From assembly GCA_018829185.1 (NCBI GenBank), contig JAHJUI010000019.1:5757-69756 (forward strand): 64,000 nucleotides of DNA, given 5' to 3'. The stretch's first letter is position 1; each line of letters starts with the position of its first letter. Shown here piece by piece: positions 1 through 15,888 of the stretch. Below the pieces are notes generated by a model. The model saw only the letters and a program-made list of their open reading frames with translations, had not been told where the DNA came from and did not search any database. The stretch is from Nanobdellota archaeon (lineage in GTDB: Archaea; Nanobdellota; Nanobdellia; SCGC-AAA011-G17; PNOQ01). A program made the translations under genes and the position numbers.

Positions 1-405
1 CTGGAAATCCAGATCTGTCTCTTAATATCCCTGGGCTTTCTACTTCTGGTGAATCTATTAAGGGGGTTTCATATGTTATTCCTTCTAGGCTGCCCATTAC
101 TCTTCCTATGGCCTTTCTTGCTTCTTCTGTTTGTTTAACATCTTTATCTTCATTTGGCCCATATCCTGAACCTCTATAAAAAATAGCATGCTTTTTTTCG
201 GCATTCCAAATAAGTTCTCCCCCAGCAAAGGGTCCATTGTGCGTTGTTGATGGGGTTTTTTGTTCTGCCCACCCGCGAATTCCTATTCCAAAATGATTTT
301 CGCTAAAAGATCCTATAAAGAGTAAATATCCCCCATCTAAAGAAGCTGTCACCCACTTATATTGTCCACTTTCCTTGTCTAATATTTCTTCTTTTAATCT
401 CATAA
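1..405 (-). CDS. hypothetical protein (5' partial in window; start codon at 405-403)
   Basis: Open frame on minus strand running off the window start, not in the ORF track because it is truncated. My translation begins MRLKEEILDKESGQYKWVTASLDGG... No recognised motif. Confidence 0.35.
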
Positions 406-443
406 AAATGGAAATCTAAAGAGATATAAAAGGTTTTTGAAAA

Positions 444-567
444 TGGCCCGGACCGGATTTGAACCGGCGACCTTTATCGGAATTTCTTCTCTCGATGTCT
501 GCCAAGTCTGGTTATCAGTTTCACCCTCAATTGAGTCGAGTGCTCTACCAGGCTAAGCCACCGGGCC
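444..567 (-). tRNA. intron-containing tRNA (124 nt; isotype unresolved, candidate anticodon-loop CTCAATT)
   Basis: Minus-strand read: GGCCCGG-TG-GCTT-AGCCTGGTAG-AGC...GCCGG-TTCAAAT-CCGGT-CCGGGCC-A. Acceptor stem is 7 perfect bp, the D-arm and the T-loop TTCAAAT are canonical, discriminator A is followed by TTTT. Helix CTCGA/TCGAG encloses 41 nt (loop plus roughly 34-nt intron) and 22 nt lie between it and the T-arm, so there is a long insert or a second intron. Confidence 0.7.
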
Positions 568-608
568 AATAAAAAAGGTAGTTTGAAAATTGTTTAAAAA
601 GGTTTCTA

Positions 609-1025
609 TTAAGAAGTATTTTCCATTAATTTAGAATTCAAAAAATCGATTTGGTTTTCACAGTTTTTTAAATTTTCCAAAAAAATATTTATTTCTTTAT
701 TTGTGTTTTCTATTTCCTTTTCATGATAGTTTATATATTGGTTGTGGTGATCTCCTATTTGTTTAACGTGAAAATTTAATTTTAATTCTTGATCATTTAT
801 TTCTTTTATATCTTTTAGTTCATTTATCTGTTCTTTATGATTCTTGATTGCATTGTTATGAAAGTTTATCCATCCTTTATTGTATTCTATTTCTTTTTGA
901 TTATAGCCTAATAAAAGTTTTAATCTTTCTATCTGATTATTATAAAATTCTTTCTTTTCTTCTTGTTTTTTCTTTTCTTCATTTAGATATCTTCTTCTTT
1001 CTGATTGGTCTTTTTTATCTTTCAT
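609..1025 (-). CDS. Lys/Glu-rich coiled-coil protein, hypothetical
   Basis: ORF track. Low-complexity K/E/N-rich heptad-like sequence. Its stop overlaps the start of the upstream receiver gene (ATGA at 1022-1025). Confidence 0.4.
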   Translation of the reverse strand: MKDKKDQSERRRYLNEEKKKQEEKKEFYNNQIERLKLLLGYNQKEIEYNKGWINFHNNAIKNHKEQINELKDIKEINDQELKLNFHVKQIGDHHNQYINYHEKEIENTNKEINIFLENLKNCENQIDFLNSKLMENTS

Positions 1026-1378
1026 AATAGGTACCTCCCCGAAAGAAGTTCTTTTTTAAACAAAAATTCATCTGCTCCAGAAGTTATAGCTTCTTCTTCA
1101 TGGTTCTCCATGCTTATTAAAACTACAAGAGTTGAAGGATCTCTTTTTCTAACTGCTCTAATTACTTCTGTCCCATATTGCAAGGAATTGCCTTTTCCTA
1201 ATTCAAAATCGGTCACAACTGCGTAATAAGGCATGTCTCCACTATTAATTTTCTCTATGGCTTCTTCTGCAGTTTTAACATAATCTACCTTGTATCCTCT
1301 CCTTGAAAAAAGAATTCTAACTCTACCATGCATTTCTTCCATATCATCAACGAACAATATCCTTTTTGTCATTTTCAA
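1022..1378 (-). CDS. response-regulator receiver domain protein (CheY-like, stand-alone)
   Basis: ILFVDDMEEM (acidic pocket), VVTDFEL (phospho-acceptor Asp), later conserved LIS...K pattern. Length 118 aa, typical of a single REC domain. Confidence 0.7.
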   Translation of the reverse strand: MKMTKRILFVDDMEEMHGRVRILFSRRGYKVDYVKTAEEAIEKINSGDMPYYAVVTDFELGKGNSLQYGTEVIRAVRKRDPSTLVVLISMENHEEEAITSGADEFLFKKELLSGRYLL

Positions 1379-1490
1379 TCTGGATCGTAGGTTTTTCTTT
1401 CATAATCCAAGTCTTCTTGGATTTTTGTTTTTTTTATTCTCTTTACCATAACCAAATAACACATAGAAAAGTATTTAAACGATAGTAGTC

Positions 1491-2225
1491 ATGTTACATA
1501 ACAACAAAATGCTAAAAGAATTTGGTCTAACAAACACTGAAGAAGGGGTGTATTTGATTTTACTTAAACTTGGATCTTCTCCTGCTGCAAGTATAATTAA
1601 AAAGACTCAATTACACAGAACAACTGTTTATGACGTTCTAGACCGGTTAATTGAGAAGGGTTTAGTAGGTTATATTGTCCAAGATAAATTAAAACATTAT
1701 TCGGCTACTGGTCCTTCAAAATTTTTAGATATAGCATTAGAAGAAACAGCGAAAGCGAAAGAAAAGGAAAAATTAGCTAAGGAAGTGATAAAGGAGATCG
1801 GATCTATAAAAGAAGAGCAAAAAGTAAAACAAATTGCCCAAATATTTGTTGGAAATAAAGGACTTAAAACAATTATGAATGATATAATAGAAACTGGTAA
1901 AGATTTTATGATTCTTGGAGCAGGTGGAAGATTTAAGGATGAGCTCCCAGTTTATACAAAACATTGGGCCAACCAACGTAGAAAAAAGAACATAAGAGCG
2001 AAAATAATTTTTACAGAAGGTTCAGATGCTCCAAAATGGGAATTAAATGAAATAAAGTTTATTCCAAAGATGTATCAATCTCCTACAACTACTCACATAT
2101 ATGGTAATAAAGTTGCTATTTTTATCCAAGAAGACCCAATATTAATAATTTTGATAGAAGGAGAAAATGTAGCTAAAGGATATAGGAATTATTTTAATCT
2201 GCTTTGGAAATCAGCTAAAAAATAA
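1491..2225 (+). CDS. TrmB-family transcriptional regulator
   Basis: N-terminal winged-HTH (EEGVYLILLKLGSSPAASIIKKTQLHRTTVYDVLDRLIEKGLV) followed by a TrmB-like C-terminal sensor region. Confidence 0.55.
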   Translation: MLHNNKMLKEFGLTNTEEGVYLILLKLGSSPAASIIKKTQLHRTTVYDVLDRLIEKGLVGYIVQDKLKHYSATGPSKFLDIALEETAKAKEKEKLAKEVIKEIGSIKEEQKVKQIAQIFVGNKGLKTIMNDIIETGKDFMILGAGGRFKDELPVYTKHWANQRRKKNIRAKIIFTEGSDAPKWELNEIKFIPKMYQSPTTTHIYGNKVAIFIQEDPILIILIEGENVAKGYRNYFNLLWKSAKK

Positions 2226-2696
2226 CTATCTCATCATACTTAACAAAGGTGGGACTACATCCTTTAAAATTAATGTGCTTAACCATGCTAAAAGCAAAAG
2301 GCTTAAGATAGTGAATGAGATAACTATAACATAAACTTTCTTTTTATCCATGTTTAATATATTTGCTAATAAAACCGAACTTAAAACTCCTCCTCCGGGA
2401 AAAGGATATAATGCTAAAAGAGCTACCCCCCATATTCCATGTTTCTTAAGATTTATGAAAATTCTTTGTTTCTTTGTTCTTTTGATCATATTTCTTTTAA
2501 ATCTGTTTAAGAATTCTATTTTACAAGTTGTTAACCCATATAGATAATAAACAATCGGAATTTGGGCAATTTCCCATATCATTGCTATTAGAATTACAAG
2601 GTAAAAAGGAAAACCAAGGGTTAAACCATAAAGAATAGATAATTTTTTTCCTAGTGTCATTTCGACTGCTAGTATACTTAGTGGTTTCCAGAGCAT
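2226..2696 (-). CDS. integral membrane protein, hypothetical
   Basis: Several hydrophobic helices and a GGG motif. No catalytic motif recognised. Confidence 0.4.
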   Translation of the reverse strand: MLWKPLSILAVEMTLGKKLSILYGLTLGFPFYLVILIAMIWEIAQIPIVYYLYGLTTCKIEFLNRFKRNMIKRTKKQRIFINLKKHGIWGVALLALYPFPGGGVLSSVLLANILNMDKKKVYVIVISFTILSLLLLAWLSTLILKDVVPPLLSMMR

Positions 2697-2732
2697 ATGG
2701 TAAACTTATTTTGTTTGTTTTTAAGTTTTTCT

Positions 2733-3251
2733 TTAAACCAAGGTTATTTCGATAATCTTTATTTCTTCTAATGGTTTGTCTGCAGAGTCTTTTTCTACTT
2801 TACTTATTGCATCAACTACATCCATTCCTTCGATAACCTCTCCAAAAACTGGATGTTTTGTATCTAAGAAATTATTATTTGCTGTGTTTATGAAAAATTG
2901 ACTTCCGCCAGTGTTTGCACCTGAGTTTGCCATTGAAATTGTTCCTCTCTTATTGCTATTGTGATCTATAAACTCGTCTTCTATGTTGTATCCTGGTCCG
3001 CCCATTCCTGTTCCAGTTGGATCTCCGCCTTGAATCATAAAGTTTTCAATTACTCTGTGGAATATTACTCCATTGTAAAATCCTTCGGAAGCTAATTTTT
3101 TAAAATTTCCTGCTGTGATTGGCATATCATCATGAAGTTTGATTTTTATATCACCCATTGTTGTTTTCATAAGAACTGTGTTTGACATTTTACATCCTCC
3201 CATTGGTAGTATTAAAAGTACTATGCAAATTATTATTAATATGTTTTTCAT
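2733..3251 (-). CDS. peptidyl-prolyl cis-trans isomerase, cyclophilin type (secreted/lipoprotein)
   Basis: FHRVIENFMIQGGDPTGTGMGGPGY and GTISMANSGANTGGSQFFI are cyclophilin signatures. N-terminal signal peptide with Cys (LPMGGC). Confidence 0.85.
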   Translation of the reverse strand: MKNILIIICIVLLILPMGGCKMSNTVLMKTTMGDIKIKLHDDMPITAGNFKKLASEGFYNGVIFHRVIENFMIQGGDPTGTGMGGPGYNIEDEFIDHNSNKRGTISMANSGANTGGSQFFINTANNNFLDTKHPVFGEVIEGMDVVDAISKVEKDSADKPLEEIKIIEITLV

Positions 3252-3320
3252 AGTTTTGTTGAAATTAGTTTTTTTATAAAGTTTATGTTTTTTAATTATT
3301 TTGGAAGAAAAATGATTTAT

Positions 3321-3872
3321 TTATCCGAATAGATTGCTAAGAAATTTCATAAACTTAGTCCATAAACTTCCAGATATACACTCGCTATTAATGCATAAAT
3401 TACTATCGCACTCAAAATTATTATCGCAAACAAAATCTGCTTTTTTCTGAACAATGAACTCTTGTTCATCTGAGCAATAATTACCAGATTTTCTATACCC
3501 AAAAGGGTAACATTTCTTATTCAAAGGGCACCCTTGACAAATTAAAATCTCTTCTTCTTCATCAATGTCTTCAGGGAGTTCAACGGGTTCTTCTTCAGGA
3601 ACTAATTTTATACAAGCTCCATCTTCACAACCATTTGAACATTCAATTGCTTTTATTTGTTGAAAATCATCTTCACAATAATACTCATAGACTTGATTTG
3701 CCATTTGCATCTCGCCACAGTGGTCTTCAAGTTTTTCACCATTCCATAGAATGCTTCCTTTTTTGTAAAAATCTACTCCAGCTTCATTATCAATGCAATC
3801 CTGTGCAGATACAAACACAGCTAAGCTAAGCAAACTTAATATTGCAATTGACAGAATTATTTTTTGTTTCAT
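3321..3872 (-). CDS. secreted cysteine-rich protein, hypothetical
   Basis: Signal peptide (MKQKIILSIAILSLLSLAVFVSA) and more than 20 Cys in CxxC / C-x-C patterns. Confidence 0.4.
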   Translation of the reverse strand: MKQKIILSIAILSLLSLAVFVSAQDCIDNEAGVDFYKKGSILWNGEKLEDHCGEMQMANQVYEYYCEDDFQQIKAIECSNGCEDGACIKLVPEEEPVELPEDIDEEEEILICQGCPLNKKCYPFGYRKSGNYCSDEQEFIVQKKADFVCDNNFECDSNLCINSECISGSLWTKFMKFLSNLFG

Positions 3873-3981
3873 TTTAATATATATAATTGGAAAAGGGTAT
3901 AAAAAGCTTTTTATTTAAGGTAACCAAGATTTTTTATCTTTTTACATTATAGAAAAGCAAAGTTTTTATAAATTTTATGTT

Positions 3982-4827
3982 TTAATTTAATTCTTTTAGT
4001 ATGATTTTTAATTCTTTTTTACCTATTCTTTTTAAATTATGTGTTTCAATTGCATTAACAATTGATTTAATGTATGAATATTCCTTGCTTAGATGCTCTA
4101 AATGTTTTTTATAAATTGATTTTGGTGGTGGCCTAATTAGAGTAAAAATAACTGCTTCTACTAAATTTTCTGCAAAATAACTTTCCCATTCTGAATAATT
4201 TGTATGTTTTTTATATAAATGGGATTTTTCTTCAATTTCATTCTTCATATCTTTAAACAATTTAGTTTGAAAAAAATGAGAAAATTCATGACAAAATATG
4301 TGCTTTATCATATTTTCATATTTGTTAAGTAAGTTAATGGTTATTATATTTTTATTCTTAAACATGTATAGATGTCCACCATTTACAAATGGGTTATTAA
4401 TTATAATCATTCCCCTTGGTTTCTTTATTTTCCAAACTGATGACACTTTAGTTACAAGCGGGAAAATTAATTTTTGATTGTTTTTAATACGATTTTTTTC
4501 TATTGTTTTAATTTTTTTAAATAATAGATCAAAATTATTTCTTTTATAAAATTGTTTAACATAAGGTATAAACTCTTTTGATAATTTAATATCGAATTTA
4601 TCTGTTTTATTTAAAGATTTAACTAATTCAAATGTTTTTAAATTTTTAATTAATAACATATGTCTTACTAACTTTGAATGATGAAAATTTATTTTGTTGG
4701 TTTTAGATATTTTGATAGCTTTACTTACGTATTTGGTTATCTGATTTTTTGGGACTTCATAACCACAAGACATTAATGCAGAATAAGCTAAAACTAATTT
4801 TTTTGAATTTTTGAATAAAATTTTCAC
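3982..4827 (-). CDS. putative HExxH zinc metallopeptidase-like protein
   Basis: FCHEFSHFFQ (HExxH) in the C-terminal half. Otherwise no recognisable family. Confidence 0.35.
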   Translation of the reverse strand: MKILFKNSKKLVLAYSALMSCGYEVPKNQITKYVSKAIKISKTNKINFHHSKLVRHMLLIKNLKTFELVKSLNKTDKFDIKLSKEFIPYVKQFYKRNNFDLLFKKIKTIEKNRIKNNQKLIFPLVTKVSSVWKIKKPRGMIIINNPFVNGGHLYMFKNKNIITINLLNKYENMIKHIFCHEFSHFFQTKLFKDMKNEIEEKSHLYKKHTNYSEWESYFAENLVEAVIFTLIRPPPKSIYKKHLEHLSKEYSYIKSIVNAIETHNLKRIGKKELKIILKELN

Positions 4828-4966
4828 ATAATGGGTTTGATATTTGTTTTTATAAATCTTATGGCAGCCAAGATTTTTTATCTTTTAATTTGTCTGGTAA
4901 GTATTTTGTCATAACATAATTTAATCCATGTTTAGCTAAAGCTTGTTGTTTTTTAAATTTTTTGGT

Positions 4967-5114
4967 TTAACATCGGAATTTAACGGTTCCGAAACCTTGC
5001 AGGTTTCTCCACCCAAATCGCCTTCGGAGACTTCGTTAAATTCCTGTTAGTTTCTTCAGAATACTTGGAAGGATTGATTTTTAGTGCAACGATGCCGTAG
5101 GCAAAAAATCAAAG
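4967..5114. repeat. structured repeat module A, copy 1 (hairpin with ATTTAAC...GTTAAAT ends, then TGTTAGTT and ...GCAAAAAATCAAAG)
   Basis: ttaacatcggaatttaacg [49-nt centre] cgttaaattcctgttagtt ... tagtgcaacgatgccgtaggcaaaaaatcaaag. Related copies at 12742-12941 and 13711-13857. The 11-bp outer stem is ggaatttaacg/cgttaaattcc. Confidence 0.6.
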
Positions 5115-5159
5115 TAATTTCAGGGGCGTATTCAATCAAGCGAACACAGTGAGCAATCA

Positions 5160-5340
5160 AGAATAAGCATCAAGGGGCAATTTTCGTCCGTTCGTCGTTC
5201 GTGGGGGAATTCCGTTTTTTGCTTCTTTTTTTTAAAAAAGAAGATTTTAGAGGGGGCTTTTATTTTGGTTCTTTTTCTAAAAGAACGGGTGGGAGAGAAG
5301 CGAGGGCGGGAAGTTTGGGGCGAGAAAACTATTTTCCGAT
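5160..5340. repeat. repeat module B, copy 1 (GC-richer; palindrome cttcttttttttaaaaaagaag)
   Basis: Inverted, diverged copy of 12543-12735. Shared blocks agttttctcgcccc, aaaagccccctc, cggaattccccc, aaaattgcccc and cccctgaaatt lie in the same order with similar spacing. Confidence 0.5.
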
Positions 5341-5342
5341 AT

Positions 5343-5352
5343 ATTTATAAAT
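5343..5352 (+). promoter_or_regulatory. candidate archaeal TATA box (tttataaata) about 26-35 nt upstream of the 5378 start
   Basis: Identical 10-mer tttataaata also sits at the same spacing upstream of the TBP gene (32974-32983). Confidence 0.35.
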
Positions 5353-5377
5353 ATTTGATTATATTTGTATTAGTAAT

Positions 5378-6292
5378 ATGACAATCTTCAAAAACTCAAC
5401 TAATAAACTCAACAGAATTAAACAATTATCTTTTAAGTTAGAGAAAGAGATTCAAGATTTGACAGAGAAAAATTTAAGTGATATTTTTGGATTACAAATA
5501 GTTAAATCAGAATTTTCTTTAAATGGATTAAGAATAGATACTCTTGCTTATGATAATGAAAATAATAGTTTTGTTATAATTGAATATAAACGAGATAAAA
5601 ATTTTAGTGTTATAGATCAAGGGTATGCTTATCTTTCTTTAATGCTTAATAACAAAGCAGATTTTATTTTGGAATATAATGAGAATTGCGATAGAAATTT
5701 GAAAAGAGAAAATGTTGATTGGTCGCAATCAAGAGTTTTATTTGTTTCTCCTGCTTTTTCAAAATATCAACAACAAGCGATTAATTTTAAGGATTTGCCT
5801 ATTGAATTGTGGGAAATATCAAGATATGAAAATGATTTAATCCAATATACAAGATTAAGGTCGCATGAAAATTCTGAATCAATAAACAAGATAAGTAAGA
5901 AAAGCGATGTTGTTGAAAAAGTAAGCAGTGAAGTAAAAGTTTATACTGAAGAAGACCATTTAAGCCATTGTTCAGAAGAAATTAAATCACTATATAATGA
6001 ATTAAAAAATCAAATTCTATCTATCGATGAAAATATTGAAGTAATTCCAAAAAAGAAATATATTGCGTTTAAATCAGATAGAAATTTTGTAGATATTTTG
6101 CCACAAAAAAGTAAAATAAAGTTTTGGCTTAATTTATCTAAAGGACAGCTTAAAGATGTTGATTCAATCGCAAGAGATGTTTCAAGCGTTGGTCATTGGG
6201 GAAACGGAGATTATGAAGTTTCATTCTCAAATTCTGAAGAATTGCCTGTTTTACTATCATTGATTAAACAAAGTTATGAGAAAAATAAATAG
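5378..6292 (+). CDS. hypothetical protein with N-terminal PD-(D/E)xK-like nuclease fold
   Basis: RIDTLAYD...SFVIIEYKRD gives a D...(E)xK arrangement. The C-terminal ~120 aa (IAFKSDRNFVDILPQKSKIKFW...GHWGNGDYEV) looks like a separate uncharacterised domain. It is the first gene inside the repeat-flanked island. Confidence 0.45.
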   Translation: MTIFKNSTNKLNRIKQLSFKLEKEIQDLTEKNLSDIFGLQIVKSEFSLNGLRIDTLAYDNENNSFVIIEYKRDKNFSVIDQGYAYLSLMLNNKADFILEYNENCDRNLKRENVDWSQSRVLFVSPAFSKYQQQAINFKDLPIELWEISRYENDLIQYTRLRSHENSESINKISKKSDVVEKVSSEVKVYTEEDHLSHCSEEIKSLYNELKNQILSIDENIEVIPKKKYIAFKSDRNFVDILPQKSKIKFWLNLSKGQLKDVDSIARDVSSVGHWGNGDYEVSFSNSEELPVLLSLIKQSYEKNK

Positions 6293-6300
6293 GGGTTAAA

Positions 6301-6450
6301 ATGGATTCAAAAAATATCACATTGCGAGTAAATTCTAAAGTTTATGATAGATACAGAGAACTTTGCAAGAAGAAAGGCTTATTAGTTTCTAGGCAGGTTG
6401 AAATAATGATGGAAGAACAATTAAAAAAAGAGGATGGAAACAATGAGTAA
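6301..6450 (+). CDS. small ribbon-helix-helix (CopG-like) protein, 49 aa (not in ORF track)
   Basis: My translation: MDSKNITLRVNSKVYDRYRELCKKKGLLVSRQVEIMMEEQLKKEDGNNE. A beta-strand (ITLRV) followed by two helices is the RHH pattern. Its stop overlaps the start of the RM gene (ATGAGTAA at 6443-6450). Confidence 0.5.
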   Translation: MDSKNITLRVNSKVYDRYRELCKKKGLLVSRQVEIMMEEQLKKEDGNNE

Positions 6451-9400
6451 AGAAAATTCTCTTTTCAAAGAAGCTACAATTAAAAGATTAGTTTCTAATG
6501 TTAATTTAACTGCTAAACATAAAAAAGCCGTAAACAAATGGTTAGATTATTTTAATAGTGGAAAATTAGAAAATGAAAAACAAGCATATATAGAATTTGC
6601 TAACATCATTCTTAGAGATTTATTAGATTATGACATCAGTCTTGAAGGTCTTAAACACGAAGAAGAAAACATAGAATTTTTATTTAAGAAAGATGGTAAT
6701 AATCTTATTTGTTTTGAAGCAAAAGGAGCAAAGACTAAAGACTTATGGGCTTATCAAGGAAGAGATAAAAAATCAAGAGAAACTCCAGTTAATCAAATAA
6801 ATTCTTATTTGTATGATAAAATAATTCCATTTGGCATTTTAACAAATTATAGATTATTTGTTTTATTTGATCGTAATGAAGGCAGTAAAAAATATCATCT
6901 AATTGATTTTACAGAATTAACTAAAGAAGATAAACTAAAAGAATTTATTGCTCTTTTCTCAAGAGAACAAGTAGAAAAAGGATTTATTACCGAAGTAATC
7001 CAACAATCCATTGTTGAAGAAAGAGAATTTACTAAAGAGTTCTATAAATTATATCACGAAACAAGGTTAATGCTAATTAAAGAATTTGAAGAAAATTCAG
7101 GGATTAGTAGAGAGGCTTCTGTTCATTTTGCACAATTATATCTTAATAGATTAATGTTTGTATTTTTTGCAGAAGATACTGGAAAAATTGATAAGAGAAT
7201 TATAGAAGAGAGGGTTATCAAAACATTAGATAACATTCATCTATTTTCATCAAATTCCTCAAATATTTCCAATGTTTTAGTTGGCTTGTTTAATGACTTG
7301 GATAAAGGAAGTGATTTTCCAGTTAAATTATTTGGGTTTAATGGTGGTTTGTTTAAACATCCAATTCCGCCAAAAATATTTTTTAAAGACTTTAGAGATG
7401 ATAAATTTTTCAAAGATGTAAATCAAAACTCTAAACTAAAGAAGAAAGAATTAGAATTAAACGACAATGAAAAAGAAGTATTTCACAAATACAAAAATAG
7501 GATTAGTCCAGTAATAAAAAATATTTTGATAATGGATTCTTTTGATTTCAATTCTGAAGTTAATGTAAATATTTTAGGTCATATTTTTGAGCAATCTATT
7601 TCCGATATTGAAGATTTGAAGACTGACAAAAGTTCTCGAAGAAAGAAAGAAGGAATATTTTATACTCCTGAATACATTACTGACTACATTTGCAGAAATA
7701 CAATTATAACTTATTTATCTAAGAAAGGAATTAATTCAGTTCCTGAATTAATAAAAGAATATGCTGAGAACATTGAAGAGTTGGAAGAGAAGTTTAAAGC
7801 AATTAAAATATTAGATCCTGCTTGCGGTTCTGGTGCATTCTTGATTAAAGCTACTGATATTATGCTTGAGATTTTCAGAGCAATTCAAGAGTTTAAGCAA
7901 AGCGAAGGAGAATATGAAGCAAAAAAAGGATTAAAAAAGAAAAGCAATGCAAAAGGACAATTAGTATTAGAAAAATGGAATGAAGAAGCAGAAGCAAGAG
8001 AAATAATCGAGAATAGTATTCATGGAGTAGATATTAACGAAGAATCTGTTGAGATAACAAAACTTTCTTTATTCTTAAAGATGGCTAGAAAGAATAGAAA
8101 GCTTACAGATTTATCAAATAATATAAAACAAGGAAACAGCTTAATCAATGATTCAGAAGTTGCAGGAGACTTGGCATTTGACTGGGATAAAGAATTTCCA
8201 TTCAAGTTTGATGTTGTTATTGGGAATCCTCCGTATGTTTTTGCAAGAGAAAAAGTATCTCAAGAAGAAAAAGATTATTATAAAAAATATTATGATTCTG
8301 CTGATTATCAGGTGAACACCTATCTGCTTTTTATCGAAAAAACAATAAGTCTATTAAAAGATAATGGAACTTATGGTTTAATTGTTCCAAATGCTTGGTT
8401 AATGGTTTATTCTGGAAAAGGATTAAGAAAGTGCATATTAGACACTTGTAAATTAAACCAGATAATAAATTTAGAGGGTTTTTCTTTTGATGATGTAAGT
8501 GTTGAAACAATAATTATACTTGCAGAAAAGAAAAAAACTGATAAAAGTACTTTTAAGGTATACTTAAACAATGGAAAAGAGTTCGTATTTTCTCATAAAA
8601 AAAATCAGTCTGAGTTCACTAAAAGTAAAGGTTTTGAATTTAAAATTTTTTCTGATGAAACTAGCACATCATTAACTGAAAAAATAAAGAATGGTTCAGT
8701 TATTCTTGATTCAATTGTACAGATTAAAGCAGGATTGCAAGCATACGAAAAAGGAAAAGGTAATCCCAAGCAATCTGCTAAAGATGTTAAAGAAAGACCA
8801 TATGATTATAATTATAAGTTTGATTTACAAACACACAAATATCTTGATGGTAAGGATGTAGGTAGATATTTTGTTTCTTGGTCTGGACTATATTTAAAAT
8901 ACGGCGAACACTTAGCAGCACCAAGAACTTTTAATTTATTTGATGGTAAGAAAATTATAATCCGAGAAATAACAGGGAGATATCCTAAAAGCATTATTGC
9001 TACATATAGTGAGGAACTATATCTATATAATAGGAGTAATATTGCTATTATTGAGAAAGAAAATAAAAAAATATCATTAAAATATATATTATCTGTTCTT
9101 AACAGTTCTTTAATTTCTTATTACTTTATGAAAAATACTGCAAAGTCGGTTAGAAAGATGTTTCCAAAGGTCATTCTAAAAGATTTACGATTATTTCCGT
9201 TTAAAGAGCTTAATATAGAAGAGCAAAAACCATTTATAGAGAAAGCAGACTTAATGCTAAATCTGAACAAAGAATTCTATGACAAAAAGGATAAATTCTT
9301 CAACAGAATAAAAAAGTCTTTTAATTTAGAAAAATTAAACAAGAAACTTGATTCTTTCTATGAATTGGAATTTAATGATTTTGTTAAAGAAATTGAAAAA

Positions 9401-9589
9401 TTAAGCAAAAAGAAACTTTCATTAAAAGAACAAGACGAATGGGAAGATTACTTCAATGAATATAAAAAAGATTTATCAAATTTAAAGAACAATATTGAAA
9501 AAACTGACAACGAAATTAATCAGATGGTTTACAAACTATATGGTTTATCTAAAGAGGAGATACAGATAATTAAGGAGAGTTTGAGATGA
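6434..9589 (+). CDS. type IIG restriction-modification enzyme (N-terminal PD-ExK endonuclease, gamma-class N6-adenine methyltransferase, C-terminal target-recognition region)
   Basis: LLDYD...ICFEAKGAKTKD (D...EXK) at the N-terminus. ILDPACGSGAFL (SAM motif I) and VVIGNPPYVFAR (motif IV, NPPY) in gamma order. About 450 aa follow the NPPY motif, enough for a TRD. Size of 1051 aa fits MmeI/Eco57I-like single-chain enzymes. Confidence 0.8.
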   Translation: METMSKENSLFKEATIKRLVSNVNLTAKHKKAVNKWLDYFNSGKLENEKQAYIEFANIILRDLLDYDISLEGLKHEEENIEFLFKKDGNNLICFEAKGAKTKDLWAYQGRDKKSRETPVNQINSYLYDKIIPFGILTNYRLFVLFDRNEGSKKYHLIDFTELTKEDKLKEFIALFSREQVEKGFITEVIQQSIVEEREFTKEFYKLYHETRLMLIKEFEENSGISREASVHFAQLYLNRLMFVFFAEDTGKIDKRIIEERVIKTLDNIHLFSSNSSNISNVLVGLFNDLDKGSDFPVKLFGFNGGLFKHPIPPKIFFKDFRDDKFFKDVNQNSKLKKKELELNDNEKEVFHKYKNRISPVIKNILIMDSFDFNSEVNVNILGHIFEQSISDIEDLKTDKSSRRKKEGIFYTPEYITDYICRNTIITYLSKKGINSVPELIKEYAENIEELEEKFKAIKILDPACGSGAFLIKATDIMLEIFRAIQEFKQSEGEYEAKKGLKKKSNAKGQLVLEKWNEEAEAREIIENSIHGVDINEESVEITKLSLFLKMARKNRKLTDLSNNIKQGNSLINDSEVAGDLAFDWDKEFPFKFDVVIGNPPYVFAREKVSQEEKDYYKKYYDSADYQVNTYLLFIEKTISLLKDNGTYGLIVPNAWLMVYSGKGLRKCILDTCKLNQIINLEGFSFDDVSVETIIILAEKKKTDKSTFKVYLNNGKEFVFSHKKNQSEFTKSKGFEFKIFSDETSTSLTEKIKNGSVILDSIVQIKAGLQAYEKGKGNPKQSAKDVKERPYDYNYKFDLQTHKYLDGKDVGRYFVSWSGLYLKYGEHLAAPRTFNLFDGKKIIIREITGRYPKSIIATYSEELYLYNRSNIAIIEKENKKISLKYILSVLNSSLISYYFMKNTAKSVRKMFPKVILKDLRLFPFKELNIEEQKPFIEKADLMLNLNKEFYDKKDKFFNRIKKSFNLEKLNKKLDSFYELEFNDFVKEIEKLSKKKLSLKEQDEWEDYFNEYKKDLSNLKNNIEKTDNEINQMVYKLYGLSKEEIQIIKESLR

Positions 9590-10320
9590 ATCAGGATATT
9601 TCTCAAAAAATATTTCAGCAAGCAATAGATTTATGGATTAAACCTGAAATGGATAAAAGAAAATCTTTGAAAAGATTGCCAAAAGATTTTAAATTAAGAA
9701 GTGCTCAAATATTGTTTTCTTTGGATAGAGGTTGGAATAAGGTAAGGCTTAATGAAGAAGTTAAAGCAGTTGCTAAATGCAAAATCAATTGTGCAAAAAA
9801 TAAAGGAGATGCAATTTATGAAAAGGATATAGATGAAATTGAATCTATTAATCTAACTGAAAAAGATCCAAATTGTGCGCATATCACTTTATTATTATTT
9901 AAGAATAATTGGGTAATTTCATTTGATTTTGCATATAATAAGAAAAGAATTAAAGAGCATATAGATGTAGCTAAAGAATTTTTTGAGAGTGCCAAAGATA
10001 ATCTAGAAAAGAAGAGATTAAGACCATTTTTTGAAAATTCTTTTGCTTGTGCAGAACTTTCAGCAAAGGCTGTTTTACTTCAATTGCCAGATAAAGAGAT
10101 TTTACAAGGTAAGGATCATTCAACGAGAATTAATAAGTTTAAAAACTGGGCTAGTTTAGGCAATGTTAAACAAGAGCATTCAGAGATATTAGAAAGACTG
10201 AATCAACTCAGATCTTCTGCAAGATATTTATGTTCTACTGAATTTAAGAAAGAAAAACCAAAAGAGATTATATCTAAATTAAGCGAAATGATAAATTTTG
10301 CAGAGAGTAGGATAAAATGA
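9586..10320 (+). CDS. hypothetical protein, all-alpha C-terminal half (RM-linked)
   Basis: ATGA overlap with the RM gene at 9586-9589. No catalytic motif is confidently recognised. The C-terminal region (SAKAVLLQLPDKEILQGKDHSTRINKF) is helical. Confidence 0.45.
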   Translation: MNQDISQKIFQQAIDLWIKPEMDKRKSLKRLPKDFKLRSAQILFSLDRGWNKVRLNEEVKAVAKCKINCAKNKGDAIYEKDIDEIESINLTEKDPNCAHITLLLFKNNWVISFDFAYNKKRIKEHIDVAKEFFESAKDNLEKKRLRPFFENSFACAELSAKAVLLQLPDKEILQGKDHSTRINKFKNWASLGNVKQEHSEILERLNQLRSSARYLCSTEFKKEKPKEIISKLSEMINFAESRIK

Positions 10321-11099
10321 GTGATTTTCAACAAGTAAAAAATGTGGCAAAGAATTTTGTTAAAGAAAATAAAGAGTTTTTTGATAGATTTGAGAATGAA
10401 ATTGATGATTTGACTATTGGCAATTATTTTGATTTGTATTTGGGTAGTAAGGGAATCACTGCATTGAACACTGAAACAGAATTTGATAAGATGTATGATG
10501 ATGCTTTAGAAAAATTTCATAATGATAAAGAAAATTTACAAGATATAGAAAAATTGTTAATAGAGTTTCTTGATTTCTTAGTTTGGTTAAAAAAACAACA
10601 GGTCATTTTTAATGTTGACATTTCTGAACGTAAACAGTTACATAAAAATGCACTAGAGTATTCCAACACAATTAATAGAATTTATTTGAACAAAAATCTG
10701 GATGGAAAAGATAAGATTGAGATTTTGCTATTTTATTATTGTTCTCTTCAAGAGATATTTAAGAATGTTGTTCAAGAAGAACTGCTTTTGAATATTTGGA
10801 AACAAGGAAAAACTGATGTTTGTGATTTAAGAAAGAAACATATACAATTAGGTGATTTCAAAAATATAATTGAGAAATATGAAAAAAATAACAAACTATC
10901 GGATGGAATAAATAAGATATTTGATGTTGAATTAAGGAATAAAACACTTCATGCTGATTATTCTGTTAATAATGATGAAATTAAATATGGTTCAAAAAGT
11001 TTAAAAATAACTGATTTACAAAATAAAATAATTAAATTAGGAGTAAGTTTGCAGTTTTTTGTTTTATTTTACCTAAGACTATTTAAGGAATCTGATTAA
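10317..11099 (+). CDS. putative HEPN-domain protein (RNxxxH motif), Abi-like
   Basis: DVELRNKTLHADYSVN carries R-N-x3-H, the HEPN RNase signature as in the AbiD/AbiF (Abi_2)-type families. ATGA overlap with the upstream gene at 10317-10320. Confidence 0.5.
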   Translation: MSDFQQVKNVAKNFVKENKEFFDRFENEIDDLTIGNYFDLYLGSKGITALNTETEFDKMYDDALEKFHNDKENLQDIEKLLIEFLDFLVWLKKQQVIFNVDISERKQLHKNALEYSNTINRIYLNKNLDGKDKIEILLFYYCSLQEIFKNVVQEELLLNIWKQGKTDVCDLRKKHIQLGDFKNIIEKYEKNNKLSDGINKIFDVELRNKTLHADYSVNNDEIKYGSKSLKITDLQNKIIKLGVSLQFFVLFYLRLFKESD

Positions 11100-11100
11100 A

Positions 11101-12543
11101 ATGGCTCATCTCCTGACTAAATCTAAATATATGCAAGGACAACAATGTCTTAGATTATTATGGCTTTCTACAAATAAACTTCTTCCTGAAAAAACTATTG
11201 CTGAAAAGCAAAAGCTTGAACAAGGGCATGAATTTGAAGAATATGCTCATAAATTATTTCCTGATGCTGTAAATCTTGCTGAATTGGGATTCAATGAAAA
11301 TTTAGAAAAAACTAAAGAGTTAATAGAACAGAAAAAGATAATTTTTGAAGCAGGATTAAAAGTTGATGATATGTTTTTGAGAGCTGATGTTTTAGAGCCA
11401 ACAGAAAACGGCTGGAATCTATATGAGATTAAAGCATCCACAAAACAAAAACCTGAACATATCCCTGATTTAGCTTTTCAAAAATTTGTTTGTGAAAAAG
11501 CAGGATTAAACATAGAAAAAAGCTTTGTCTTACACTTAAATAAAGAGTTTATCAAAAATGGAAAGATAAACTCTAAAGAATTATCAACAATAGAAGAAGT
11601 TACTGAAAAAGTAAATCTTATTGATGATGTTGAGAATAATTCTAAATTATATCTTGAAATAATGAATTCAAAAGAAAAGCCTGAAATTTTAATCTCTAAA
11701 AACTGCAATTCCCCATATCCCTGTGCTGTTAAAAAAGATTGTTGGGGAACTTTACCAAAAAATAATGTTTTGCATTTGACAAATTGGAGAGTTTATTGGA
11801 ATCTTTTTGATGATGGAATTATTGACTTAAAAGATGTCCCAAAAGGCACAAAACTAACTCCAAAGGATGAAATCATCTTAGAAGGAGAAACCCAAGAAAA
11901 AATAATGATTTCAAAAGAACATATTAAACATTTTCTGAATTCTTTAAAATATCCTCTTTGTCATTTGGATTTTGAAACTTTTGATACTGCTGTTCCGATT
12001 TTTGATAAATCAAGACCATGGCAAAAAATGCCATTTCAGTATTCTGTTCATATTCAGCCAGAAAATGGAGAAATTATTCATTATGAATATTTAGCTGAAG
12101 ATGGAGAAGATCCAAGACCTAAACTTCTTGAAAATCTAAAAGAACATGCAAAAGGTTCAGGAAGTGTTATAGTTTTTAATAAATCATTTGAAATAAATGT
12201 CTTAAACAAATTAGCAGAAGATTTTCCAGAGCATAAAGATTGGATTCAAAATGTTTTAGACAGAATTATAGATTTAGCTTTTCCATTTCAAAGTTTTTAT
12301 TATTATAATCCATCTCAAAAAGGAAGTTATTCAATAAAGAAAGTCTTACCAGCAATTACTGGAAAAGGGTATACTGGCTTAGAAATTGGGAATGGTGGAG
12401 ATGCAAGTGCATTATATTTTTACAGCCATGTAAAAAAAGAGATTGATGGAAAAGAAGATATAAGAAAAAATCTCTTGAAATATTGTTGTTTAGATACAGA
12501 AGGAATGGTTTGGATTATTGATGAATTAAGGAAGTTAGTTTGA
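11101..12543 (+). CDS. Cas4/RecB-like PD-(D/E)xK nuclease with Cys cluster, fused to a DEDDy-type 3'-5' exonuclease domain (DUF2779-like architecture)
   Basis: N-terminal half: GQQCLRLLW (first Cys), RADVLEP...NLYEIKASTK (D...ExK), AFQKF, CNSPYPCAVKKDC (C-x5-C-x5-C). C-terminal half: LDFETFD (exo I, DxE), VIVFNKSFEINVL (exo II-like), YCCLDTEGM (exo III, YxxxD). It starts 1 nt after the upstream stop. Confidence 0.6.
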   Translation: MAHLLTKSKYMQGQQCLRLLWLSTNKLLPEKTIAEKQKLEQGHEFEEYAHKLFPDAVNLAELGFNENLEKTKELIEQKKIIFEAGLKVDDMFLRADVLEPTENGWNLYEIKASTKQKPEHIPDLAFQKFVCEKAGLNIEKSFVLHLNKEFIKNGKINSKELSTIEEVTEKVNLIDDVENNSKLYLEIMNSKEKPEILISKNCNSPYPCAVKKDCWGTLPKNNVLHLTNWRVYWNLFDDGIIDLKDVPKGTKLTPKDEIILEGETQEKIMISKEHIKHFLNSLKYPLCHLDFETFDTAVPIFDKSRPWQKMPFQYSVHIQPENGEIIHYEYLAEDGEDPRPKLLENLKEHAKGSGSVIVFNKSFEINVLNKLAEDFPEHKDWIQNVLDRIIDLAFPFQSFYYYNPSQKGSYSIKKVLPAITGKGYTGLEIGNGGDASALYFYSHVKKEIDGKEDIRKNLLKYCCLDTEGMVWIIDELRKLV

Positions 12544-12735
12544 GTTTTCTCGCCCCCTCTATAAAAATATCGAACGAAGTGAGTGAAAATGTCCGAAGGA
12601 CTAAAAGCCCCCTCGTTATATTATTTCTTTTTCCGCAGAAAAAGGCACTCTGTCCGTAGGACTCGGAATTCCCCCCGTCGTTTTCGTTTTTAGTTCGTTT
12701 AGTTAAAATTGCCCCCTTCGTTAGCCCCTGAAATT
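12543..12735. repeat. repeat module B, copy 2 (inverted relative to 5160-5340)
   Basis: See 5160-5340. The reverse complement of copy 1 aligns block by block and the copy ends with cccctgaaatt. Confidence 0.5.
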
Positions 12736-12741
12736 ATTGAG

Positions 12742-12941
12742 TTTAACATCGGAATTTAACGAAGTTGAATTTTGAGAGCTGGAGAGAGCCGAGGCAAACC
12801 ACGGCGAGCGACCTCCAAAATTCAATTTGGGTGGAGAAACTTGCAAGGTTTCGGAACCGTTAAATTCCTGTTAGTTGCGTCGGAGCGTAGCGGAGACCGA
12901 GGGATAGTGCAACGATTTTTGCGAAGCAAAAAATCACGAAG
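12742..12941. repeat. structured repeat module A, copy 2 (same outer ends as copy 1; central ~97 nt inverted and expanded)
   Basis: tttaacatcggaatttaacg [centre] cgttaaattcctgttagtt...gcaaaaaatcacgaag. The centre contains atttgggtggagaaacttgcaaggtttcggaacc, the reverse complement of the copy-1 centre ggttccgaaaccttgcaggtttctccacccaaat. Confidence 0.6.
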
Positions 12942-12949
12942 AGTAAGTT

Positions 12950-13660
12950 TTAAGCGGTTGTAACTTTTAATATCTGTTTAACAAAGTAGTCTGGCTCTCG
13001 TTTTCCTCTATAAGCGGGATGTGGTCCAATATAAATAGACTTTCCCATATCTAACAACCTCTTTAATAAAAATTTTTTGTATTTGAAAGAATTGCTCTGA
13101 AATACAATTATATTTGGATTGAAGATTTTGACTTCTTCAATGAAAAAATTTAGTTCAATCTTTTGATCTTGGTGAATTCTATTTTCTCCACCTGTTCTCT
13201 TTTTTCTATTTATTGAAACAAATTTGTAATAGTTTGTTAAAGCAATATAAGATAATGGATTAATTGGAGGTAATTTTTCTTGATATTGCAGTGCTTTCTG
13301 ACAAGATAATATATTTTTGAGGTTGTTCCAATAATTCTGCAAATTAAGATCATCTTTTAGAAAAAATATTGCAGTAAAATATGTTCCTGCGATATGAGGA
13401 TTATGTTTTGATACTGGTTTTTCTTCTATTGCTTGTCTTCTTTCTTCAAAAGATTGAATTCCTCCAATTTTTTCATCTGAACCTATATCTAATCCGACAA
13501 TTAAAATCTTCTTAGAGTTACCATAGTTTGAACCAACATATGGGAAAGTCGGAAATTTAATTCGAGGACTGTTTTTTAAGCATCCAGTTTTTTTATCTAT
13601 ATCAAATTTCTTAAATAAATCTTGATACTCATTTTTTAACTCAGATTGTATCATAATCAA
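12950..13660 (-). CDS. hypothetical protein (weak resemblance to the UDG-superfamily motif pattern)
   Basis: KILIVGLDIGSDE resembles UDG family-4 motif A (h-V-G-E-x-P-G-x-x-E) and GPHPAYRG resembles motif B (HPSP). The resemblance is weak. It sits alone between repeat copies A2 and A3. Confidence 0.35.
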   Translation of the reverse strand: MIMIQSELKNEYQDLFKKFDIDKKTGCLKNSPRIKFPTFPYVGSNYGNSKKILIVGLDIGSDEKIGGIQSFEERRQAIEEKPVSKHNPHIAGTYFTAIFFLKDDLNLQNYWNNLKNILSCQKALQYQEKLPPINPLSYIALTNYYKFVSINRKKRTGGENRIHQDQKIELNFFIEEVKIFNPNIIVFQSNSFKYKKFLLKRLLDMGKSIYIGPHPAYRGKREPDYFVKQILKVTTA

Positions 13661-13710: not shown

Positions 13711-13857
13711 TAACATCGGCATTAACAGAAGTCGGCGTAGCCGATTTGGACGAAGAAGTCTGCAAGACTTCGTAGTCTGTTAATGCCTGTTAGTTTCTCC
13801 CGAATACTTGGAGGGATTGATTTTTAGTGCAACGATGCCAAAGGCAAAAAATCAAAG
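13711..13857. repeat. structured repeat module A, copy 3 (covarying stem cattaacag/ctgttaatg)
   Basis: taacatcggcattaacag [centre] ctgttaatgcctgttagtt...tagtgcaacgatgccaaaggcaaaaaatcaaag. The outer stem sequence differs from copies 1 and 2 but stays complementary. The inner hairpin gaagtc-TGCAA-gacttc corresponds to gaaacc-TTGCA-ggtttc. Confidence 0.6.
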
Positions 13858-14050
13858 TTGCAAATTCTCGTTCATATGATTGAGAGGACACTTTAGGACG
13901 GTGGGTTCCGTCTGTAAAACCTATTAAATAATAGAAATTGTTGTTGTATTTTGTCTTGTGAGCCGCCGCCTTTTTTGCTTCTTTTTTTCTAAAAAAGAAG
14001 AGGGGGAGTTTCCGCTCCATCTAAGGAATAAAACACCGCGTAAGGAACAA
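13858..14050. repeat. repeat module B, copy 3
   Basis: Shares ttttttgcttctttttttctaaaaaagaaga..ggggg with copy 1. An inverted copy lies at 18540-18700 with shared blocks ttgcaaattctc, gagaggacacttta (14/14), agaaattgttgt and gtgagccgcc. Confidence 0.45.
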
Positions 14051-14095: not shown

Positions 14096-14422
14096 ATGTG
14101 CAACATAAAAAGATTTAAAAAGAACCAAGTAAATATATTTATTATGCCTGATGAAAAAATTGCCAGAGCAATAAAAGCAAAAGTAAGAAGAGAAATGTTA
14201 CAGATACTTTGTCAAAAGGAAAAAATACCTGTTCATGAAATAGCAAATAAATTGAACATAACAGAGTCTTCTGCATCCAAACATTTGAAATTATTGTATG
14301 ATTTAGGTTTTGTAGATTTTGAAGAGAAACATCCAGAAAAATTTTATTTTCTTAAAATAAAAGAAATTAGAGAGCTATTTCAGGTCTATAATAAAATTAT
14401 CAAAAAATTAAGAGGTAAATGA
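14096..14422 (+). CDS. ArsR/TrmB-type winged-HTH transcriptional regulator
   Basis: VHEIANKLNITESSASKHLKLLYDLGFV is an HTH. ATGA overlap with the RuBisCO start at 14419-14422. Confidence 0.55.
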   Translation: MCNIKRFKKNQVNIFIMPDEKIARAIKAKVRREMLQILCQKEKIPVHEIANKLNITESSASKHLKLLYDLGFVDFEEKHPEKFYFLKIKEIRELFQVYNKIIKKLRGK

Positions 14423-15888
14423 AAATGAAAAAAGAACATAAACAATTGCTTAAAACACTTAATGAAAAACAACAAGCTTATGTAAACTTGAACTTGCCTG
14501 ACCCAAAAAATGGCGAGTATCTTCTTACAGTCTTTCATTTAGTTCCAAACGAAAAATTAAATATTTTACAAGCAGCTACAGAAGTTGCAGCAGAATCTTC
14601 TACTGGAACAACCTTTAAGGTGCAGACAGAAACCCCTTTTTCCAGAGAAATGAATGCTCTTGTTTATCAACTTGATTTAAAGAAAAATCTTGTATGGATT
14701 GCTTATCCTTGGAGGCTTTTTGACAGGGGAGGAAATGTGCAGAATATTTTGACATATATTGTTGGGAATGTTTTGGGAATGAAAAAAATAAATACTTTAA
14801 AATTATTAGATGTGTGGTTTTCTCCAGTAATGCTTGAGCAGTATGATGGGCCAAGTTATACAATAGATGATATGAGAAAATATTTGGATGTATATGACAG
14901 GCCTATTCTTGGAACCATTGTAAAGCCAAAAATGGGACTTACTTCTGCTGAATATGCAGAGGTGGCTTATGATTTCTGGGCAGGGGGTGGAGATTTTGTT
15001 AAAAATGATGAACCACAAGCAAATCAGGATTTTTGCCCATACGACAAAATGGTAAGATATGTAAAAAAAGCTATGGATAAAGCTGTCAAAGAAACTGGAA
15101 AGAAAAAAGTTCACTCTTTTAATGTTTCAGCAGCTGATTTTGATACTATGATTAAAAGATGTGAAATGATTAGAAATGCAGGTTTTGAACCAGGAAGTTA
15201 TGCGTTCTTAATTGATGGAATCACTGCTGGTTGGACAGCAGTGCAAACTCTTAGAAGAAGATATCCAGACGTATTTATTCACTTTCATAGAGCAGGTCAT
15301 GGAGGGTTTACAAGACCAGAAAATCCAATGGGATTCACAGTTTTGGTTCTGTCTAAATTTGCAAGATTAGCCGGAGTTTCAGGAATTCATACTGGAACTG
15401 CAGGTGTTGGAAAAATGTCTGGAAAGCCAGAAGAAGATGTTGTAGCTGCGCACAATATTTTAAGTTACATAGCAAAAGGACATTTTTTTGAGCAAAGCTG
15501 GGGAAAGATTCCTGAAAAAGATGAAGATGCTTCGAAGCTCGTTCATGAAGATGCAATTCACCATCTTATTTTAGAAGATGACAGCTGGAGAGGAATGAAA
15601 AAATGCTGTCCTATTATCTCTGGAGGATTAAATCCAATGTTATTGAAGCCGTTTATTGATATAATGAATAATACTGATTTTATTACAACAATGGGGGCAG
15701 GTGTTCATGCTCATCCAAGAGGGACTAAAGCTGGTGCAACTGCATTGGTTCAGGCATGCGAAGCTTATCTTAAAAAAATAGATATCAAAGAATATGCTAA
15801 AGACCATCCTGAATTAGCTGAAGCTATCAAGTTTTTTTCAAAAAAACCAAAGGATGTGGAAGTAGCTGAGGAAACTGAAAAGAGTTAA
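14419..15888 (+). CDS. rbcL: ribulose-1,5-bisphosphate carboxylase, large subunit, type III (archaeal)
   Basis: GGGDFVKNDEPQ (GxDFxKxDE), TIVKPKMGLT (carbamylated-Lys region), FIHFHRAGHGG (HRA.H) and the C-terminal GGL..M.. pattern. No small-subunit gene nearby, consistent with form III. Confidence 0.85.
   Translation: MKMKKEHKQLLKTLNEKQQAYVNLNLPDPKNGEYLLTVFHLVPNEKLNILQAATEVAAESSTGTTFKVQTETPFSREMNALVYQLDLKKNLVWIAYPWRLFDRGGNVQNILTYIVGNVLGMKKINTLKLLDVWFSPVMLEQYDGPSYTIDDMRKYLDVYDRPILGTIVKPKMGLTSAEYAEVAYDFWAGGGDFVKNDEPQANQDFCPYDKMVRYVKKAMDKAVKETGKKKVHSFNVSAADFDTMIKRCEMIRNAGFEPGSYAFLIDGITAGWTAVQTLRRRYPDVFIHFHRAGHGGFTRPENPMGFTVLVLSKFARLAGVSGIHTGTAGVGKMSGKPEEDVVAAHNILSYIAKGHFFEQSWGKIPEKDEDASKLVHEDAIHHLILEDDSWRGMKKCCPIISGGLNPMLLKPFIDIMNNTDFITTMGAGVHAHPRGTKAGATALVQACEAYLKKIDIKEYAKDHPELAEAIKFFSKKPKDVEVAEETEKS

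Follow-up and report, generated by a model that had tools for sequence, protein, structure and literature searches.

At least 16 clades of HEPN proteins, together with RhuM, are linked to restriction-modification (RM) operons, an arrangement interpreted as multi-pronged defence on the model of PrrC-EcoprrI (Anantharaman et al. 2013, PMC3710099), and a HEPN family of the 2hsb type clusters with RM operons in the same analysis (PMC3710099). Integron cassettes are known in Nanoarchaeota, and where the cassettes of archaeal integrons have an annotated function, toxin-antitoxin (TA) genes are the most frequent (Ghaly et al. 2022, PMC9668308). The fusion of a Cas4-like nuclease to a DEDD exonuclease has likewise been described, as the uncharacterised Pfam family DUF2779, a member of which is quasi-essential in JCVI-syn3.0, the minimal Mycoplasma cell (PMC3985635, PMC13621843). 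Here we analyse a locus from a Nanoarchaeota (DPANN) genome, contained in a 64-kb stretch of contig JAHJUI010000019.1 (the window), where a type IIG RM gene is followed by two HEPN-type genes and a DUF2779 gene.

Our reading, held with slightly better than even confidence, is that positions 5378–12543 form a six-gene operon (g0 to g5, table 1) that is the cargo of a single gene cassette. We see in it a new combination of known parts, namely an RM-linked HEPN layered defence on a cassette bounded by attC-like sites, and not a new five-protein machine. We report the identities of the parts, their modularity and RM linkage, a swap of the specificity module of the RM enzyme and the mobility of the cassette. 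The window is archaeal and AT-rich (approx. 30% G+C), and the source databases label the homologues Nanoarchaeota.

Parts of the operon

The five consecutive plus-strand open reading frames (ORFs) listed in an earlier note on this DNA were all present, with the junctions it gave: the stop codon of the ribbon-helix-helix (RHH) gene g1 (TAA, 6448–6450) overlaps the start of the IIG gene g2 (ATG at 6443, or 6434), ATGA overlaps join g2 to g3 (9586–9589) and g3 to g4 (10317–10320), and g4 is separated from g5 by a 1-nt gap (11099 to 11101). The note had missed the boundaries of the cassette and a sixth gene, g0, which lies 8 nt upstream of g1 and is part of the same operon. A run of five tight junctions has a probability of about 0.02 by chance, which points to one transcript, though not to functional interdependence. 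The coding density of the genome is 91%, and 16 of the 35 same-strand neighbour pairs outside the cassette are separated by 10 nt or less. Tight packing is thus common genome-wide, and junction spacing is no argument for a hard-wired system.

The assignment of g2 as an MmeI/Eco57I-type single-chain IIG DNA enzyme, rather than an rRNA or tRNA methyltransferase, is supported by profile matches to Pfam Eco57I (E = 9.7e-42), N6_Mtase (6.6e-23), TaqI_C (1.9e-19), MmeI_Mtase (2.4e-16) and MmeI_hel (9.7e-08), and to the PADLOC model REase_MTase_IIG (2.5e-72), in agreement with the note. The domain order is a putative N-terminal EAK nuclease, an MmeI helicase-spacer, a gamma-class N6-adenine methyltransferase and a TaqI_C specificity domain, and the motifs DPACGSG(AFL), NPPY and EAK are invariant across six homologues. 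No Pfam or other nuclease-domain profile matched the N-terminal nuclease. The D...EXK motif proposed for this domain held in its EAK part only: the aspartate originally chosen is not conserved in the homologues, so the first acidic residue, 12–13 residues upstream of EAK, is probably the glutamate of IEFLF. The operon contains no separate S or other methylase gene, and the target-recognition domain is part of the g2 chain. We rejected g2 as a BREX or DISARM methylase (PglX, DrmMI), as it scored 112 bits against the NCBIfam PglX model (cut-off 500) and no partner genes (PglZ and BrxC, or DrmA and B) are present in the operon.

Comparison of the window with related contigs or loci (designated by L-numbers) revealed that the specificity module of g2, from after NPPY through TaqI_C, cannot be aligned at the DNA level with its counterparts in L012 and L013, while the remaining cassette is approximately 92% identical. 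At the protein level, identity to the L013 enzyme falls from 94–100% to 19–35% in the module and then returns to 87–92%; the L013 counterpart (3230–4140) resembles the module of the distant L006 enzyme. By these sequence comparisons the module has been swapped between relatives, giving a mosaic enzyme that appears to be under active diversification. Exchange of specificity modules among relatives is also a feature of MmeI/Eco57I IIG (IIL) enzymes, which share with g2 the arrangement of EAK nuclease (putative in g2), MmeI spacer, gamma methyltransferase and TaqI_C in one chain. Where g2 differs is in having an RHH gene ahead of it and accessory genes behind it.

The first of these, g3, had been described as an unknown gene; it is in fact the secure HEPN protein of the operon (Pfam PF05168, E = 2.5e-10). 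Residues 1–117 comprise an N-terminal helix and a six-stranded beta domain, and residues 119–243 a classic UPF0332-type HEPN domain with the four-helix fold. The motif L-R209-x-S-A-R213-Y214 is invariant, as are H99 and, within the HEPN domain, H178. The catalytic R-x4-6-H motif is absent, tyrosine occupying the usual position of the catalytic histidine.

The protein that had been named as the HEPN of the operon is g4, and here the earlier claim survived in part. The all-helical protein has an R207-N-K-x-x-H212 sequence that is invariant in 16 of 16 family members, lies at the start of a helix in the structure model and conforms to the catalytic R-x4-6-H motif with a polar residue after the arginine; it falls within the invariant stretch E-L-R-N-K-x-x-H-(A/G)-D, and LLFYYCSLQEIFKN is invariant too. 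A HEPN fold is probable but not proven: no profile in Pfam, PADLOC, NCBIfam or PHROGs matched g4, nor did a Foldseek search yield a match. The family is rare. It forms 17 clusters among 5.8 billion proteins, and an exhaustive hidden Markov model search of 1.8 billion returned 14 representatives. We considered and rejected g3 and g4 as paralogues or as a HEPN pair: they share no profile similarity, and each occurs mostly without the other.

The last gene, g5, matches Pfam PF11074 (DUF2779, E = 7e-43) and PADLOC Cas4 (E = 3e-07), and combines a Cas4-like PD-(D/E)XK nuclease with a DEDDy 3'-5' exonuclease domain and four conserved cysteines. The Cas4-like and DEDDy residues that had been picked out by eye proved sound, since 41 sequences show at least 97% conservation at each of C16, D96, E109-x-K111, C202/C208/C214, D290-x-E292, N360...E364 and Y461-x3-D465. 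The fusion itself is already known: MMSYN1_0389 and UU173 of the DUF2779 family have the same two-nuclease architecture, with catalytic residues kept and Y in place of h (PMC3985635, PMC13621843). The archaeal subfamily differs in having four Fe-S cysteines, against two in the Mycoplasma protein. A CRISPR-linked Cas4 was rejected on the basis of the Pfam Cas_Cas4 score (17.8, cut-off 22.7) and the lack of any repeat array in the 64-kb window, although cas genes were not systematically searched.

At the other end of the operon, g0 matches the PADLOC candidate defence protein PDC-S18 over its full length (E = 2.5e-134) and Pfam DUF5655 (E = 4e-17), with a weak match of its N-terminus to a NucS-like PD-(D/E)XK domain. 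A literature search found no paper mentioning PDC-S18. In PADLOC it is a candidate single-gene system, whereas here it is an optional first gene, not found in the otherwise matching operons L006, L015 and L018. The RHH protein g1 gave weak profile matches of RelB/RepB and RelB/DinJ type. Copies 70–96% identical to it lead related operons, RHH comes first in most architectures, and g1 is probably the operon regulator.

The accessory genes in other neighbourhoods

The same five-gene order occurs in three diverged lineages: the window and L020 (identical), L012 and L013, and L006, L007, L017 and L023. Between the window and L006, identity is 52% for the IIG enzyme, 84% for g3, 66% for g4 and 62% for g5. 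Conservation of the overlapping order while the IIG enzyme diverged to this extent is what might be expected if the IIG enzyme, both HEPN-type proteins and DUF2779 formed one machine, with the downstream proteins required for, or controlled by, the enzyme; a further occurrence of g3 and g5 around a variable gene, in L054, could be taken in the same way. The unequal divergence of the genes, on the other hand, indicates a mosaic history, and the wider neighbourhoods of each gene speak against such a machine.

For g4 these neighbourhoods are varied. In L021 it follows a PstI-type methylase and endonuclease, with an RHH-like ORF ahead of the RM genes; in L004 it follows a 32%-identical IIG gene and precedes Bro-N; and in L015 it lies after an IIG gene without g3 and before RhuM. 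In L001–L003 it comes directly after the RHH gene with no RM gene and is followed by RhuM, and this RM-less form was found on 22 contigs. L018 retains a scar of IIG deletion (3674–3770), in which all that is left of the gene between RHH and an intact g4 is approximately its first 12 and last 18 codons, so g4 was kept after the IIG gene was lost.

RHH and g4 are the most constant pair across architectures, and in L001 they are joined by an ATGA overlap, the classic antitoxin-toxin layout. This could mean that the locus is an addiction module, with RHH as an antitoxin-like repressor, g4 and/or g3 as the toxin, and stabilisation of the cassette or array rather than infection sensing as its main role; the RelB/DinJ matches of g1, weak as they are, and the frequency of TA genes in archaeal integron cassettes (PMC9668308) fit that explanation. 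The overlap, however, is confined to the L001 type. In most architectures the two genes are 3–4 kb apart (3.9 kb in the window), no RHH was detectable in L004, and an RHH gene leading an RM operon, as the RHH-like ORF does in L021, equally fits a controller-type regulator. We therefore regard an addiction module as doubtful.

The g3 family is far larger (more than 207 clusters, compared with the 17 of g4), and IIG, g4 and g5 accompany it in only one of 27 full-length species-representative loci, the other 26 having g3 without these parts. Instead, it adjoins type I and III systems: among 92 neighbouring genes (within two genes on either side, 26 loci) we counted ResIII six times, Methylase_S and DEAD four times each, SWI2_SNF2 three times, and N6_N4_Mtase and HSDR_N twice each. 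For g5, with more than 1700 close relatives, restriction-type genes are adjacent in four of five contexts not chosen through g4. It is the last gene of a type III operon in L053, directly follows HsdR in L057 and lies between g3 and an SNF2/Mrr set in L054; other copies are located beside a type II methylase, in a conjugative-element-like region and, on bacterial plasmids, among mixed nuclease and helicase neighbours. The L054 order (312–7696) is HEPN244 (the g3 family), then an unrelated gene of 227 aa, DUF2779, an SNF2 helicase, a 570-aa gene and an Mrr-like nuclease. The gene of 227 aa was considered as a divergent g4 and rejected, with no match at E up to 10 and no Pfam family.

The accessory genes recur as the closing genes of RM operons, be these of type I, IIP, IIG or III. 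The note's description of a hard-wired system did not stand, because each accessory gene is found far more often without the others than with them, the family sizes of g3, g4 and g5 differ 10- to 100-fold, several architectures have g4 but lack IIG, g3 or g5, and g4 has outlived the IIG gene. MmeI-type enzymes are, besides, self-sufficient. An obligate integrated system is in our judgement improbable. With slightly better than an even chance, the locus is a self-sufficient IIG core around which independently mobile accessory defence genes have accreted.

The same neighbourhoods bear on the proposal that the downstream genes are housekeeping genes, with DUF2779 in DNA repair and HEPN in RNA processing, that are co-transcribed with the RM gene by coincidence. 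The quasi-essential DUF2779 protein of JCVI-syn3.0 would fit this, as would the many tight junctions of a 91% coding genome. The downstream genes, though, are nucleases or RNase-like proteins of defence-type families; g3, g4 and g5 lie in a strain-variable cassette of low G+C content (0.271, compared with 0.306) that is absent or different in relatives; and elsewhere they adjoin RM systems, Fic, RhuM, Mrr, SIR2 and genes of mobile elements. A family with as few as the 14 cluster representatives of g4 is incompatible with a core function. We consider coincidental co-transcription very improbable.

A viral or proviral origin was also rejected. PHROGs yielded no match for g0, g1, g3, g4, g5 or the neighbouring 236-aa ORF (g2 was not scanned), and in IMG/VR neither relatives of g3, g4 or g5 nor the core of the sites described below could be found. 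Alone among the operon genes, g0 has IMG/VR relatives, on two contigs and with approximately 50% identity (L055, 8001–8897; L056, 238–1137).

Cassette boundaries and a candidate recombinase

The operon is bracketed by approximately 200-nt degenerate inverted repeats (arms), outside which lie attC-like sites that we term X sites. The general plan of an X site is TAACA, a 2–3-nt bulge, a 10–11-bp stem, a variable hairpin, a conserved hairpin (GAAGTCT-GCA-AGACTTC), the closing stem and TGTTA. In the first site, TAACA and a 2-nt bulge are followed by an 11-bp stem (GGAATTTAACG/CGTTAAATTCC) around two hairpins, then TGTTA and a conserved 3' extension (TAGTGCAACGAT...AAAAATCA). Six copies folded alike independently (z of −4 to −6), with compensatory changes in both stems; covariation was assessed in direct scans and in folds made independently, as MAFFT alignments of the copies misplaced the stems. 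A strict custom pattern scan found three sites in the window, four each in L001 and L002, two each in L003 and L012, and none in 17 other loci, against an expectation of 0.07 in the shuffled window. Orientation is uniform among the sites of one array, and the cores, judged by eye, fit RYYYAAC/GTTRRRY at 5–7 of seven positions. No Rfam family matched the flanking elements at E up to 1, and they were rejected as members of a known RNA family.

Three independent comparisons place cassette gain or loss at the core of these sites, in every case at TAACA. Homology between the window and L013 breaks at the TAACA of two different downstream X sites (12744–12748 in the window). L001 and L003 share 99.99% identity as far as CTAAC|ATCG and are unrelated past it, while a 1055-nt insert in L002 consists of one X-like site and a 154-aa ORF, flanked by TAACA. 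The arms suggested a transposon with terminal inverted repeats, a possibility we rejected: they are real, but the cassette contains no transposase, and homology breaks at the X cores outside them.

The interior of the first X site (4986–5033) is the reverse complement of that in every other copy, and looks as if it had been flipped by recombination between the inverted TAACA and TGTTA ends. The inner part of the left arm and a TATA-like element, TTTATAAATA (approx. 5344–5353), make up a conserved region upstream of the operon and may act as its promoter. The inner 49 nt of the right arm (12565–12613) are 94–95% conserved after RhuM in L001 and L015, which exceeds the conservation of coding DNA.

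A gene for a XerA-type tyrosine recombinase is located 1.4–6 kb from the cassette in three genomes (window, 18744–19559; L013, 9077–9883; L001, 15700–16527). The three proteins are 37–46% identical to one another, and the other flanking genes are unrelated. The window protein (272 aa) scored 260.7 with XerA_Arch (cut-off 220) and 238.5 with the integron integrase model (cut-off 265). Those of L013 and L001 were slightly below the NCBIfam XerA/integron-integrase cut-off, and all three were below the cut-off for classical integron integrases. The window recombinase matched IntI4 (2a3v) in two stretches, which is consistent with a missing IntI-specific insertion, and the additional domain specific to IntI was not found in it.

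The resemblance to integrons (PMC9668308) extends to hairpin-forming sites that appear to be conserved in structure and not in sequence, one orientation per array, AAC...GTT cores at which gain and homology breaks occur, and a cargo of defence genes. The differences are the size of this cassette (7.8 kb, six genes, with its own putative promoter region), the recombinase of XerA type below the integron-integrase cut-off and the one site with an inverted interior. At low confidence, we raise the possibility that recombination takes place at the X sites as part of an integron-like DPANN platform that moves whole multi-gene defence operons instead of single genes, served by a XerA-type recombinase without the IntI-specific insertion that would also flip the interior of a site. 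If true, this would make the platform a counterpart of integrons or pdif modules driven by Xer, and would explain the shuffling of defence genes in tiny symbiotic archaea.

Table 1. Coordinates of the operon genes, arms and X sites (window positions unless a locus is named).
Feature	Position	Strand	Assignment or basis
X site (attC-like)	4969..5115	+	scan and fold; interior inverted relative to other copies
Left arm	5115..5329	+	degenerate inverted repeat, five G-rich blocks
g0	5378..6292	+	304 aa, PDC-S18; profile match
g1	6301..6450	+	49 aa, RHH protein and probable regulator; weak profile matches and leading position
g2	6434..9589	+	1048–1051 aa, type IIG RM enzyme; profile matches
g2 swapped specificity module	8238..9220	+	DNA and protein comparison with L012/L013
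g3	9586..10320	+	244 aa, beta domain and UPF0332-type HEPN
g4	10317..11099	+	260 aa, rare all-helical R-N-x3-H protein
g5	11101..12543	+	480 aa, DUF2779 (PF11074) double nuclease
Right arm	12544..12736	-	inverted repeat; begins at the base following the g5 stop codon
X' site (attC-like)	12745..12940	+	same orientation as X
Third X site	13712-13860		strict pattern scan
X sites of L001	89-262, 2140-2221, 8608-8687, 11974-12111
X site of L002	12166-12274
X sites of L012	124-198, 739-835
X site of L013	~7665-7729

Several features lie near these elements in the window. A minus-strand ORF of 236 aa (12950–13660), for which Pfam, NCBIfam, PADLOC and PHROGs gave no match, is the sole gene between two X sites and in this resembles a cassette of one gene. 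The third X site and a partial copy of the left-arm hairpin (13971–14001) are followed directly by a gene pair (14096–15888) in which an ArsR-like winged-helix gene overlaps, by ATGA, an ORF read by eye as a form III-type RuBisCO large subunit. Just after the recombinase, a 340-aa ORF (19623–20642) gave weak matches to intein proteins that suggest a free-standing Hint-like domain. Elsewhere, Rfam tRNA matches at 444–567 (minus strand, 124 nt) and 29568–29662 (plus strand, 95 nt) exceed the 71 positions of the model and are thus probably intron-containing archaeal tRNAs; ARAGORN, run on the window, reported no tRNA and missed both.

A proposed layered defence and its precedents

PrrC-EcoprrI and the HEPN study of 2013 suggest, by analogy, how the locus might work. 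The IIG enzyme would methylate self DNA and cut unmodified invading DNA, and DUF2779 might then degrade or process the resulting ends from both strands. The two HEPN-type proteins could provide a latent RNA-targeting back-up that shuts down translation when restriction is blocked or overwhelmed, and RHH would autoregulate the operon. A composite of RM and abortive infection, one of the options in the earlier note, is the best reading of the locus; the suggestion that such a system had not been described is not supported, since layered defence with RM-linked HEPN and RhuM was published in 2013 (PMC3710099).

What the locus shares with PrrC-EcoprrI and other RM-linked HEPN loci is that HEPN-type genes lie within an RM operon or close it, in some cases together with RhuM, and the proposed logic of DNA restriction first with RNA cleavage as back-up. 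There are clear differences. PrrC and RloC carry the HEPN domain in fusion with an N-terminal ABC-type ATPase, and neither g3 nor g4 has an ATPase domain. The RM system of PrrC-EcoprrI is of type Ic, whereas here it is type IIG in an archaeal (DPANN) host. Finally, two unrelated HEPN-type proteins are found in tandem, one without the catalytic histidine and the other from an unannotated family.

Some observations weigh against a layered defence built by accretion around the IIG enzyme. That the accessory genes share a transcript with the RM gene is suggested by their spacing only. With R-x4-Y in place of a canonical catalytic histidine, g3 may bind RNA or regulate rather than cleave. For DUF2779, the sample of independent contexts is small, at five, and quasi-essentiality in a minimal cell makes a repair role possible.

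Neither PMC3985635 nor PMC13621843 describes DUF2779 as the closing gene of RM operons, a place that it takes here in operons of several types. Three poorly known families, the 244-aa beta-domain HEPN, the 260-aa R-N-x3-H protein and DUF2779, gain a testable context as add-ons to restriction of every type.

To our knowledge, little is known about the immunity of DPANN archaea. The locus extends to them a layered defence of restriction plus RNase that has been described mainly for bacteria, and comparison across the cassette boundaries gives direct evidence that whole defence operons are exchanged at specific sites in these genomes. We see the best leads in DUF2779 and the two HEPN-type families, as accessories of restriction in general, and in the sites of cassette exchange.

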